A stretch of 64,000 bases of DNA, from the NCBI GenBank assembly GCA_030390025.1, contig CM059432.1, positions 73,286,001 to 73,350,000 on the forward strand. Reading direction: 5' to 3'. Source of the stretch: Squalus acanthias. Lineage: Eukaryota. A program made the translations under genes and the position numbers. Under the pieces are notes generated by a model, which had not been told where the DNA came from, ran no database searches, and saw only the letters and a list, made by a program, of their open reading frames with translations. This document shows positions 26,546 through 31,262 of this stretch, one piece after another (positions within the stretch are counted from its first letter, which is position 1; every line of letters starts with the position of its first letter).

Positions 26546-26691
26546 AGGACTACATGAATGCTAAAAAGCGGAAGCAGCATGCTATAGACAGGGCTAAGCA
26601 ATCCCACAATTAACGGATCAGATCAAAGCTCTGCAGTCCTGCCACATCCAGTCGTGAATGGTGGTGGACCATGAACAACTAACGGGAGGAG

Positions 26692-29483
26692 TGTCGTAAG
26701 AATGAGCCTTACGCGTGGTGAACTTAAAGTAAGCTTTAATCAACTAAAAAGGTGCTACATACAAAAGAGGTCTTACTCTGGATCCAACTGATCAGTCCAG
26801 TATTTATCCTGGACTAATCACAGGAAGTGATGCAATAAAGTTCGAGTCACAGGAAGCAGTGTTGTGTTACCACATTCTCCCCCCCCCCCAAAAGATTAGG
26901 AGGCCGGGATGCTCCCTCCATTTCGTAGCCGCTGGACGAGGGAGAGCCGCACCCGTTTGGGTTCTCGTAGCGGTAGAGGGCCCCTAGCCCGTTTACCCGC
27001 CGTGGGCCGTGGACCAGAGTCCGAGTGATCCAGCCCGCTCTGTGAGGGGTCAGGACGATCCTGACTGTGTACTGGTGCCCGAACGGGTGTCGGGCAGGGC
27101 TGTGGCAGATCCGTTTCTGAGCGTACGGTACGGGGTGGATCGTGGCTGCGCGTGCGAGCCCCGATGGGCTCATAGTCAGTCTGCCCCAGGTCGGCACGCT
27201 GGAGTGAGGTACCAGCCGGCGTCAGATCCAGATCGTGATGAGAGGCACCTGGCGAGCCCAGAGATGTGCCTGGTACAATATCATCCCCTGGTGTCCCTCT
27301 ATGTTTCGGCGGGCAGGGAGCCAGATCCCGCAATGACACGGTAGATTCCCGACCGTCAGGATACCGAATATAGGCGTAGGTAGGGTTGACGTCAGTGAGC
27401 TCAACCTCATCTACCAGGGGGTCATTCTTAGACGCCCGGACATATCTTCGGAGTAGCACTGGTCCCGGTGCAGTCAGCCACGAAGGGAGAGATATCCCAT
27501 AGGATGAGCGACGCTGAAATCGGAAGAACCGTTCATGAGGCGTCGTATTTGTGGCGGTCGAAAGGAGGGACCGTGTGGAGTGTAATGCGTCTGGAAGTAC
27601 TGCTTCCCATTGCTGGTTGGGTAGGCCCCGAGATCTCAAAGCCAGACGTACCGCATTCCAGATGATAGCGTTATAACGCTCGACTTGCCCATTCCCGACC
27701 GGATGATAAGGCGTCGTTTTGCTGGCAGCAATACCCCGTTCCGAGAGATAGGCCTTGAGTTCTCCTGACATAAAAGAAGGGCCCCGATCCGAATGAACAT
27801 AGGATGCCATGCCACAGAAAGCAAATACCTGCTCAAGGCAGCTGATAACCGTGGTCGTCAGCATATTGGGGCAGGGAAAGGCAAACGGAAAACGGGAATA
27901 CTCATCGACCATGGTCAATAGATAAGTGTTGCGAGTTGAAGAGGGCAACGGCCCCTTAAAATCGATGCTAAGCCGTTGCATTGGCTGGGTCGCATGTATG
28001 AGTATACCACCCGAGGGGCGGAAAAACTGAGGTTTCAATTCCGCACAGACTCTGCAGTCCGAGCACATCTTCTTTACATCCCCGGTAGAGAATGGGAGAT
28101 TTCGGGACCGCACGAAGTGTAGCTTTAACTCTGCAACAATCTGTTCCCTAATGAAACTATCAGTGCTACCTGAGTCAATTAAGGCATCTAAAGTATGTCC
28201 ATTAATTGATGCTTTTGTAGCTGCATGGAATAGGTTCTGAGGACAAGCAGCTGTAATTGGTGTCGTTGCACAAAGAGTGGCTGAAACTCTAGGTGTGTTT
28301 CTTCGAGAGGAAACCCAAGAGGAAGCACGATAGATTTTAGCCGGAACATCTTGATAGGCCCTTACCGGGGCAGTTCGGTAGGACTTAGCTTGATAAGCCC
28401 TCGTAGAGGCTCTTGATAGGCAAACCTTTGCAAAATGACCCTTTTTGTTGCAATGACTGCAAAACGCATTGCGAGCAGGGCAGAATTTCCGAGGGTGAAA
28501 CTCATCACCACAAAAGAAGCATTTCTTAGATTGCCAAGAGGCTGCCACAGTGGGGTCATCATCCTCTTCATCAGTGACGTCATCACATTGATCGTCAGGG
28601 ATAAAGACCTCCCTAATAGAGTTCACCTGTGGCCTCTTAAATTGCCTGACTGTAGTTAAGGCAGTAGACCGAGGTCTGGGCACTGTATAAAGGTCTGCAT
28701 TTCTTTTTGCCAGATCTAGAGAGCAAGCCATGTCATAAGCTCTCTGAAGCTCAAGTGTCTTACTTTCCAGTAGACACTGGCGTATAAATGGGGAGGCAAG
28801 CCCGCAGATGAAAGCATCACGGATCATTTCTTCACGGTACAGCTCAGCTGAGGCCGCCTGAAAGTTACAGTCCATACTAAGTCTGCGAAGCTCTTGGAGG
28901 AATTTATCAATGGATTCCTCCGGCCCTTGTTGGGCTGTAGCTAGTAGATGTCTGGCATAGACCTCATTCGGTGTCTTAGTATATAGTCTCTTAAGCGTCC
29001 GAATTGCCTCCTCGTAACTGCCCCATTCCTCCACATACTGAAATAAATTCGGGGTGACACAGTTGATGAGTATCCGCAACTTTGAGTCATCATCAGCCTT
29101 GCAATATTCAAGAAAATTGTCAAACGTGCGATACCAGTGTTTCCACACCTTACCGGCTGCTGGGGTGTTTGGGTCCAAGTCAAGACGCGATGGTTTAAGG
29201 ATGTTTTCCATGATGGGTGATTCCCTGGATCCTTAGTTCCGAGTTCGTCCAAAAAGTTTGAGTGCGAAGTTTTTCAAAGTTGATTAAATTGTCGTAAGAA
29301 TGAGCCTTACGCGTGGTGAACTTAAAGTAAGCTTTAATCAACTAAAAAGGTGCTACATACAAAAGAGGTCTTACTCTATGCCTCTCCAGGATCCAACTGA
29401 TCAGTCCAGTATTTATCCTGGACTAATCACAGGAAGTGATGCAATAAAGTTCGAGTCACAGGAAGCTGTATTGTGTTACCACA
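26692..29483 (-). mobile_element. Ty3/Gypsy-type LTR retrotransposon with RT/RNaseH deleted
   Basis: TG..CA LTRs at 26692-26874 and 29290-29483 (two substitutions plus one 11-bp indel), TSD AGGAG, polypurine tract 26875-26889. Confidence 0.95.
26896..29211 (-). CDS. 771-aa Gag - partial protease - integrase fusion ORF
   Basis: Two CCHC knuckles, LIDSGS protease motif, then directly CxxC and a D,D,E core (SIDFKGP, HSDRG, GQVERYN); no RT motifs; no chromodomain. Confidence 0.85.
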   Translation of the reverse strand: MENILKPSRLDLDPNTPAAGKVWKHWYRTFDNFLEYCKADDDSKLRILINCVTPNLFQYVEEWGSYEEAIRTLKRLYTKTPNEVYARHLLATAQQGPEESIDKFLQELRRLSMDCNFQAASAELYREEMIRDAFICGLASPFIRQCLLESKTLELQRAYDMACSLDLAKRNADLYTVPRPRSTALTTVRQFKRPQVNSIREVFIPDDQCDDVTDEEDDDPTVAASWQSKKCFFCGDEFHPRKFCPARNAFCSHCNKKGHFAKVCLSRASTRAYQAKSYRTAPVRAYQDVPAKIYRASSWVSSRRNTPRVSATLCATTPITAACPQNLFHAATKASINGHTLDALIDSGSTDSFIREQIVAELKLHFVRSRNLPFSTGDVKKMCSDCRVCAELKPQFFRPSGGILIHATQPMQRLSIDFKGPLPSSTRNTYLLTMVDEYSRFPFAFPCPNMLTTTVISCLEQVFAFCGMASYVHSDRGPSFMSGELKAYLSERGIAASKTTPYHPVGNGQVERYNAIIWNAVRLALRSRGLPNQQWEAVLPDALHSTRSLLSTATNTTPHERFFRFQRRSSYGISLPSWLTAPGPVLLRRYVRASKNDPLVDEVELTDVNPTYAYIRYPDGRESTVSLRDLAPCPPKHRGTPGDDIVPGTSLGSPGASHHDLDLTPAGTSLQRADLGQTDYEPIGARTRSHDPPRTVRSETDLPQPCPTPVRAPVHSQDRPDPSQSGLDHSDSGPRPTAGKRARGPLPLREPKRVRLSLVQRLRNGGSIPAS

Positions 29484-31262
29484 AGGAGGAGGCTCCATGA
29501 ATATCCCCATCCTCAATGATGGTGGAGCCCAGCACGTGAGTGCAAAAGACAAGGCTGAAGCGTTTGCAACCATCTTCAGCCAGAGGTGCCGAGTGGGTGA
29601 TCCATATTAGCCTACTCCTGAGGTCCCCACCATTACAGAAGCCAGTCTTCAGCCAATTCGATTCACTCCACATGATATCAAGAAATGGCTGACTGCACTG
29701 GATACAGCAAAGGCTATGGGCCCCGACAACATCCCGGCTATCGTGCTGAAGACTTGTGCTCCAGAACTAGCCGCGCTTCTAGCCAAGCTGTTCCAGTACA
29801 GCTATAGCTCTGGCATCTATCCGACAATGTGGAAAACGGCCCAGGTATGTCCTGTCCACAAAAAGAAGGACAAATCTAATCCGGACAATTACCGCCCCAC
29901 CAATCTACACTCAATCATCAGCAAAGTGATGGAAGGTGTCATCGACAGTGCTATCAAGCGGCACTTACTCACCAACAACCTGCTCATTGATGTCCAGTTT
30001 GGGTTCCGCCAAGACCACTCGGCTCCCGACCTCATTACAGCCTTGGTCCAAACATGGACAAAGGAGCTGAATTCCAGAGGTGAGGTGAGAGTGACTGCCC
30101 TTGACATCAAGGCAGCATTTGACTGAGTGTGGCATCAAGGAGCCCTAGTAAAACTGAAGCCAATGGGAATCGGGGGGAAAACTCTCCACTGGCTGGAGTC
30201 ATACCTAGCACAAAGGAAGGTAGTTGTGGTGGTTGAAGGTCAATCATCACAGCCCCAGGACATCGTTGCAGGAGTTCCTCAGGGCAGTGTCCTAGGCCCA
30301 ACCATCTTCAGCAGCTTCATAAATGATCTGCCCTCCAACATAAGGTCAGAAATGGGGATGTTCGCTGATGACTGCACAGTGTTCAGCGCCATTCACAACT
30401 CCTCAGATAATGAAGCAGCCCATGTCCGCATGCAACTAGACCTGGACGACATTCAGGCTTGGGCTGATAAGTGGTAGGTAACATTCATGCCACAGAAGTG
30501 CCAGGCAATGACTATCTCCCACAAGCGAGAGTCTAACCACCTCCCTTTGACATTCAACGGTATTACCATCGCCGAATCCCCCACCATCAACATCCTGGGG
30601 GGTCACCATTGACCAGAAACGTAACTGGACCAGCCACATAAATACTGTGGCAACAAGAGCAGGTCAGAGGCTAGGTATTCTGTGGTGAGTGTCTCACCTC
30701 CTGACTCCCCAATGCCTTTCCACCATATACAAGGCACAAGTAAGGAGTGCGATGGAATACTCTCCACTTGCCTGGATGGGTGCAGCTCCAACAACACTCA
30801 AAAAGCTCGACACCATCCAGGACAAAGCAGCCCGCTTGATTGGCACCCCATTCACCACCTTAAACATTCACTCCCTCCACCACCAGCGTACCGTGGCTGC
30901 AGTGTGTACCATCTACAAGATGCACTGTAGCAACTCACCAAGGCTTCTTCAGCAGCACCTCCCAAACCCGCGACCTCTTCCACCTAGAAGGACAAGGCCA
31001 GCAGGTCCATGGGAACCACCTCCAAGTTCCCCTCTAAGTCACACATCATCCTGACTTGGAAGTATATCGCCGATCCTTCATCGTCACTGGGTCATAATCC
31101 TGGAACTCCCTACCTAACAGCACTGTGGGAGTACCTTCATCATACGGACTGCAGCGGTTCAAGAAGGCGGCTCACCACCACCTTCTCAAGGGCAATTAGG
31201 GATGGGCAATAAATGCTGGCCTTGCCAGCGATGCCCACATCCCATAAACAAATTAAAAAAAA

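Follow-up and report, generated by a model that had tools for sequence, protein, structure and literature searches.

The closest described system is Tf1, which primes reverse transcription with the first 11 bases of its own RNA following a cut by RNase H (available sections of PMC7175516); Tj1 is used as a self-priming comparison element (accessible part of PMC4600332). The Tf1 primer region has been described as a pretzel of three duplexes, and self-priming as common in the Tf1/sushi group (accessible text of bioRxiv 10.1101/2022.12.06.519325). Complementarity between LTR and primer-binding site led to the same prediction for plant Tcn1 chromoviruses and for the Copia TAR elements Houba and Osr-1 (available sections of PMC6317226), so that self-priming outside Tf1/sushi is not unprecedented. 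Self-priming is nevertheless regarded as characteristic of the Tf1/sushi chromoviruses, the predicted plant Copia case being an addition.

In the window, that is, the whole stretch of 64,000 nucleotides that was analysed, a minus-strand LTR element runs from 29483 to 26692 and is flanked on both sides by the 5-bp target-site duplication CTCCT. Its features are, in the 5' to 3' direction of the element:

29484..29488, minus strand: target-site duplication CTCCT, upstream copy
29290..29483, minus strand: 5' LTR, 194 bp, TG..CA, the CA ending at 29290
29410..29417, minus strand: TATA-like GATAAATA, 74 nt 5' of the LTR arm, putative function
29333..29343, minus strand: LTR arm AGTTGATTAAA, predicted 3' part of the primer
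29338-29333, minus strand: poly(A)-type hexamer ATTAAA, the last 6 bases of the LTR arm
between 29333 and 29332, minus strand: predicted cut
29320..29332, minus strand: proximal hairpin GCTTA/TAAGT, beginning at base 1 past the LTR arm
29293..29311, minus strand: distal hairpin CGTAAG/CTTACG
29289, minus strand: spacer A between the 5' LTR and the primer-binding position
29278..29288, minus strand: primer-binding position TTTAATCAACT, complementary to the LTR arm
26896..29211, minus strand: lone ORF with Gag, a partial protease and an in-frame fusion to integrase, without RT and RNase H
28420..28521, minus strand: two CX2CX4HX4C zinc knuckles, from the translation
28118..28123, minus strand: junction of an internal deletion of ~1.64 kb, with 6-base microhomology
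26875..26889, minus strand: polypurine tract, a G run and AGAA, directly before the 3' LTR
26692..26874, minus strand: 3' LTR, 183 bp
26687..26691, minus strand: target-site duplication CTCCT, downstream copy

The letters and coordinates bore out the core of the original prediction. No TGG-type tRNA site follows the 5' LTR, and one base after it stands TTTAATCAACT (29288-29278), the exact reverse complement of AGTTGATTAAA (29343-29333), with the noted ATTAAA in place inside the LTR 11-mer; the helix of the window family stops exactly at 29343. The expected number of chance matches of the 11-mer within the LTR, at four offsets, is 0.0005. Folding of the 74-nt region gave a z-score of −3.14, with 1 of 200 shuffles as good. 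The CGTAAG/CTTACG hairpin that had been noted in the loop (29311-29293) is present and part of the minimum-energy fold, but it is not conserved clade-wide. The two CCHC knuckles were recovered from the translation, and the reported lack of a chromodomain held for the window copy, a full-length copy and all 16 relatives, none of which gave a Chromo or SH3_Tf2-1 match. Since a tRNA site is missing and the post-LTR site pairs with the element's own LTR, own-RNA priming is likely: from the sequence, we assign a probability of about 0.7 to the reading that the element's own RNA, and not a tRNA, serves as the primer of reverse transcription.

The window copy itself lost RT and RNase H through the in-frame deletion of ~1.64 kb, as seen by comparison with four full-length genomic copies, and half of its protease remains. 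Its RT may have been supplied in trans, or may have been lost during copying. The 3' LTR differs from the 5' LTR by an 11-base deletion and 2 substitutions; the 11 bases absent from it correspond to the 29387-29377 region of the 5' LTR, ~30-40 bases past the TATA-like motif.

Comparison across families was based on 80 metagenome loci, taken from 142 confirmed by Gag alignment retrieval, and three host families, 83 loci altogether. Five loci with less than 70 nt of upstream sequence were left out, and the remaining 78 fell into 40 families at 80% gag DNA identity. Each family was represented by its best member, and for most families the LTR end was set at the CA that scored highest. In 36 of the 40 families and 60 of the 78 loci, the site and the LTR form a Watson-Crick helix of 9-18 bp (median 14); the failing families were L057, L058, L104 and L118, and 18 loci stayed below 9 bp. 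The 3' arm began 1 base past the CA in 33 of the 36 families, and in the other three 1 base past a second CA, two bases further. Paired LTRs confirmed the CA as the LTR end in L046, L048/L052/L053/L080, L049/L062, L059, L094 and the window family. Helix position 11, counted from the inner end, was Watson-Crick paired in all 36 families and pairing decayed beyond it. G-U pairs were absent before position 14, and the base pair flanking the inner helix end was mismatched throughout (GA in 27 families, AA in 7, CA and GG in 1 each). As positions 1-9 are Watson-Crick by the selection rule, the free data are the pass rate of 36/40 and the positions from 10 onwards.

The first 11-mers of these 36 families comprised 30 distinct sequences. 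When the site of one family was set against the LTR of another, the helix averaged 5.5 bp and the family's own value was reached in 11 of 1,260 pairs; shuffled LTRs reached 9 bp in 27 of 7,200 cases. The two arms, whose covariation across related families had been proposed as a check, thus covary in 36 of 40 families, and the pairing is real, clade-wide and covarying. A chance inverted repeat in AT-rich LTR ends, to which the AT-richness of the arms and their common hexamer might have pointed, is refuted by this covariation and by the shuffle and cross-family controls, and we rejected it as having practically no probability left.

Some loci showed particular arrangements. L083, L092 and L107 have a 15-bp arm ending in TGAAGA or TCAAAA, and neither AATAAA nor ATTAAA is present in the stretch that begins 60 bases ahead of the arm end and closes with the LTR. 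In L121, the LTR end and the post-LTR site are duplicated 56 bases downstream.

None of the 30 distinct clade sites was of the tRNA 3'-end type (TGG), and the best tRNA match was 6 bases, in a set of 52 distinct host tRNA sequences with 5 clear isotypes from which the tRNA of the control family was absent. That control, a young TGG-bearing Gypsy family of the same genome, gave 3-5 bp in all 17 junctions found (18 loci), and two fungal chromovirus-group contigs gave 9 and 10 bp in the pairing test. Priming by a tRNA half or another host small RNA, with the LTR match being secondary, would agree with the occurrence of TTTAATCAACT in several families and with the half-tRNA priming known in Copia (accessible part of PMC6317226). 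However, the 30 site sequences each follow their own LTR, whereas the tRNA-type site of the control family is fixed while its LTR varies. Together with the short best match in this host tRNA set of 5 clear isotypes, this makes priming by a host small RNA very unlikely.

The TGG-bearing host family (L165-L184, ~1,270 aa), which from its motifs we take to be CsRN1-like, has a variable R region and a CAGT..hexamer layout similar to that of the clade under study. The host yielded no chromovirus control: a search for DUF4939 that carried no positive-control signal gave 0 matches, SH3_Tf2-1 gave weak matches only, and the best chromoviral RT match was 36-39%.

Full-length copies in the host genome are ~4.4 kb long and carry one ORF. 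With TG..CA LTRs, a target-site duplication, a polypurine tract and the order Gag-PR-RT-RH-IN in these copies, the family is of the Ty3/Gypsy type, the window copy lacking RT-RH. In the 3.7-Gb genome there are 1,941 exact occurrences of a 32-base LTR-end junction, and Gag identity was 98-100% in the best 150 of 5,775 candidates. By these values the family is both abundant and very young, and has therefore replicated with its present primer-binding site. Both 11-mers are kept in thirty near-identical copies, which is uninformative on covariation. At one helix position, 8 variants of the site and 6 variants of the 5'-LTR arm were compared among copies of the family, and compensation was seen for none of them. 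Such uncompensated variants are probably for the most part post-insertion changes, yet they lend no support.

Further observations concern the copies and relatives of this family. L224 and L225 represent one element in which both LTRs carry the same arm change while the post-LTR site is unchanged; the pattern fits progeny LTR arms derived from the 3' LTR of the parent, and an RT error fits too. Three LTR-end junctions at G000:C1:566510, 570757 and 575004 are spaced by 4,247 bases, which is the element length minus one LTR and corresponds to an LTR-sharing head-to-tail tandem array. In a common subfamily (L032:4477-4557, also L031 and L033), a second polypurine tract with the first 37-47 LTR bases sits ~70 bases before the true 3' LTR, and the ORF of L032 terminates at this extra piece. 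Among the 120 homologs listed, identity was 47-89% and the named sources were Palaemon, Trichuris, Caligus, Clavelina, Actinostola and Armadillidium; one was labelled as a bacterial MAG and is probably a contamination. Scans of viral contigs with the clade alignments found no relatives of the clade, and the ESM Atlas returned generic Gag clusters only.

The 5' copy of the LTR arm lies 24-72 nt from the post-LTR site, with a mean pair probability of 0.76-0.98. The loop as a whole had a median folding z-score of −0.3, with 4 of 36 families below −1.5, and the distal hairpin CGTAAG/CTTACG was found again in sister family L036 but not clade-wide; on loop folding, a distal U5 hairpin was rejected as a clade feature. 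At the proximal end, a stem of at least 4 bp starting from the first base past the arm was present in 28 of 36 families, against a null of 7.7 +/- 2.3 and with 0 of 1,000 shuffles as high. This stem is mostly RCCT..AGGY, is GCTTA/TAAGT in the window copy, and adjoins the predicted cut. When the start was moved 3, 6 or 9 bases further into the loop, stems were found in 16 of 36 families, so the excess of the proximal hairpin is smaller than the shuffle null suggests. The two side duplexes of the Tf1 pretzel were not enriched over shuffles in a simple longest-helix test of the 36 families (p 0.29 and 0.92) and were likewise rejected as a clade feature.

The original prediction had also placed the RNA start at 29343, the outer end of the arm, and here it found no support. 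Pairing extends upstream of helix position 11, with 31 of 35 families paired at position 12 (10.4 expected cross-family) and 27 of 35 at position 13 (14.5 expected). Among the 30 families with enough upstream sequence, 9 TATA-like motifs were present; all lie 71-117 nt before position 11, two sister families carrying TATAAATA, at −90 and −92, and none was found at 25-35 nt. In favour of a start at 29343 are the lack of such a motif in 21 of the 30 families, the stop of the window family's helix at exactly this base, and AGT at position 11 in 18 of 36 families; the strict mammalian initiator YYANWYY is present there in 0 of 36. The upstream pairing and motifs suggest that the RNA probably starts upstream of the arm, by 40-90 nt if transcription relies on the TATA-like boxes, in which case the primer may exceed its paired part.

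The extended pairing would be natural, too, if the upstream bases were in the priming RNA, as in self-priming by the 3' copy of R, either through pairing between the two ends of the RNA or in trans, from a second genome or a short R transcript, with trimming to the hexamer. The arm sequences are identical in both LTRs, and the DNA therefore cannot separate priming by the 5' copy from priming by the 3' copy. However, an upstream start site explains the extended pairing equally well, and the 5' copy is close by and predicted to pair with high probability. Use of the 3' copy would, we infer, also consume the acceptor of the first strand transfer. Overall, we consider priming by the 3' copy unlikely.

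In 27 of the 36 families the last six bases of the arm are AATAAA or ATTAAA, and the TATA-like boxes at 71-117 nt would place this signal deep within R, a position in which masking is important. The helix is possible only at the 5' end, since its other strand is located beyond the LTR. All this would be expected if the helix served only to mask the poly(A) signal of the 5' LTR and something else primed. Masking alone, however, leaves the element without a primer site while the partner fills the sole primer-binding place, and it requires neither a constant spacing of one base to the LTR end nor pairing that is strictly Watson-Crick. Moreover, pairing is kept in the 9 of 36 families whose arm ends otherwise (TGAAGA in L083, for example, and also L107), and the TGG-bearing control family has its hexamer at a similar position without any comparable helix. 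We regard masking without priming as decidedly unlikely. The original prediction had offered self-priming and masking as alternatives; probably both apply, masking of the 5' poly(A) signal being likely as a side function.

For self-priming by the 5' copy, the following course can be proposed. In the full-length RNA, the LTR arm would fold onto the post-LTR site, and the poly(A) signal of the 5' LTR would at first be buried in the helix. The RNA would then be cut just 3' of the hexamer, where the helix meets the small conserved hairpin (between UUAAA and GCUU), by a nuclease that, if Tf1 is a guide, would be the RNase H of the element. The new 3'-OH would be extended over the spacer A into U5 as minus-strand synthesis, and the primer-binding site would be rewritten when the primer is copied into the plus strand, which would explain both the strict Watson-Crick pairing and the concerted change of the arms. 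The structure is compact, at 66 nt, and predicts the cut site exactly, so the proposal is directly testable by sequencing. More tentatively, and with less than even odds, self-priming may have originated independently in a pan-animal Gypsy clade, with the internal poly(A)-signal arm of R as the primer end, a cut at the hairpin junction, and one RNA switch that both blocks premature 3'-end formation in the 5' LTR and makes the primer.

Trees on RT+RH+IN were calculated with 24 and then 10 rows of the clade and with 13 and then 10 chromovirus-group proteins of fungal, protist, fish and amphibian origin; Tf1, Tf2 and sushi-ichi were outside the tree, and outgroup sampling was thin. The clade was monophyletic on a long stem and separate from the chromoviruses, both groups at 100/100. 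Under LG+G4, joining the clade with vertebrate chromoviruses was rejected (p-AU 1.5e-5), as was joining it with other chromoviruses (2.8e-4), whereas a position as sister to all chromoviruses was not (0.108). The best placement was beside Mag-like copies, at 87/88 only and with a long-branch warning. Host elements L123-L127, with an RT 22-25% identical to that of the clade, were used as outgroup only; from the spacing of RT and integrase we take them to be retrovirus-like, and the tree labels Mag-like, CsRN1-like and retrovirus-like are our assumption from motifs. A chromodomain was found in the controls L163 and P0130 and in 0 of 16 relatives. With nesting among chromoviruses rejected (AU p<0.001) and no chromodomain, the clade is not a member of Tf1/sushi.

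The suggestion of tRNA-independent priming in a Gypsy lineage outside Tf1/sushi is thus supported by the signature and the placement, while its novelty is reduced by the precedent in plant Copia TAR. No description of self-priming in an animal non-chromovirus Gypsy clade was found in the titles, opening abstract lines and text passages covered by full-text searches, including the available sections of PMC5006619, PMC6934838, PMC3601003, PMC5341516, PMC6238403, PMC3670739 and PMC2774666, a scope outside which subscription papers, Repbase reports and bioRxiv supplements lie. The clade may already have a name; its peptide words were not found in five supplementary text files covering the Cigr-1, Tor2 and MolGy series (part of the material of PMC6238403). 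If the self-priming reading is true, tRNA-free priming is common in animals and either arose again or predates the chromoviruses: shrimp, copepod, woodlouse, nematode, ascidian and anemone are the sources of the named relatives, and a vertebrate genome contains about two thousand copies of recent origin. Elements of the clade would presumably escape silencing by tRNA fragments at the primer-binding site, and annotation tools that require a tRNA primer-binding site miss or misjudge such elements.

Among other known systems, the Mag-like host families are a weak sister group in both trees (87/88), and two CCHC knuckles are a Mag trait. The CsRN1-like host family has a compact single ORF and a short LTR, as in the clade, but carries a TGG site that does not pair with the LTR; the RT of both groups is only ~30-36% identical to that of the clade. 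In retroviral occlusion hairpins of the 5' LTR poly(A) signal, such as that of HIV-1, the hexamer is held in a 5'-end helix, whereas in the clade the hexamer has its partner beyond the LTR, at the primer position, and a tRNA site is lacking. TAR, as described in the accessible part of PMC6317226, is a predicted case of self-priming outside Tf1/sushi, but is Copia and from plants, while the present clade is animal Gypsy; Tcn1, in the same text, groups with Tf1/sushi and the clade does not.

With Tf1 and Tf2 of Schizosaccharomyces pombe, Tj1, Tosmo1-3 and Tf1/sushi elements, the clade shares the Ty3/Gypsy domain order and the lack of a tRNA site, and as in Tf1/sushi its post-LTR site is complementary to a stretch of the LTR, with an 11-bp core as in Tf1 (available sections of PMC7175516 and PMC4600332). 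Unlike Tf1/sushi, it has no chromodomain or SH3_Tf2-1 and stands apart in the tree, and unlike the two fungal control contigs its arm overlaps the poly(A) hexamer. In contrast to Tf1, the loop is only 24-72 nt, the pretzel side duplexes are not enriched, a small hairpin adjoins the predicted cut and the arm, judging from the upstream motifs and pairing, is probably not at the extreme 5' end of the RNA. The clade probably works like Tf1 in outline, but it differs in design and is not a member of Tf1/sushi.
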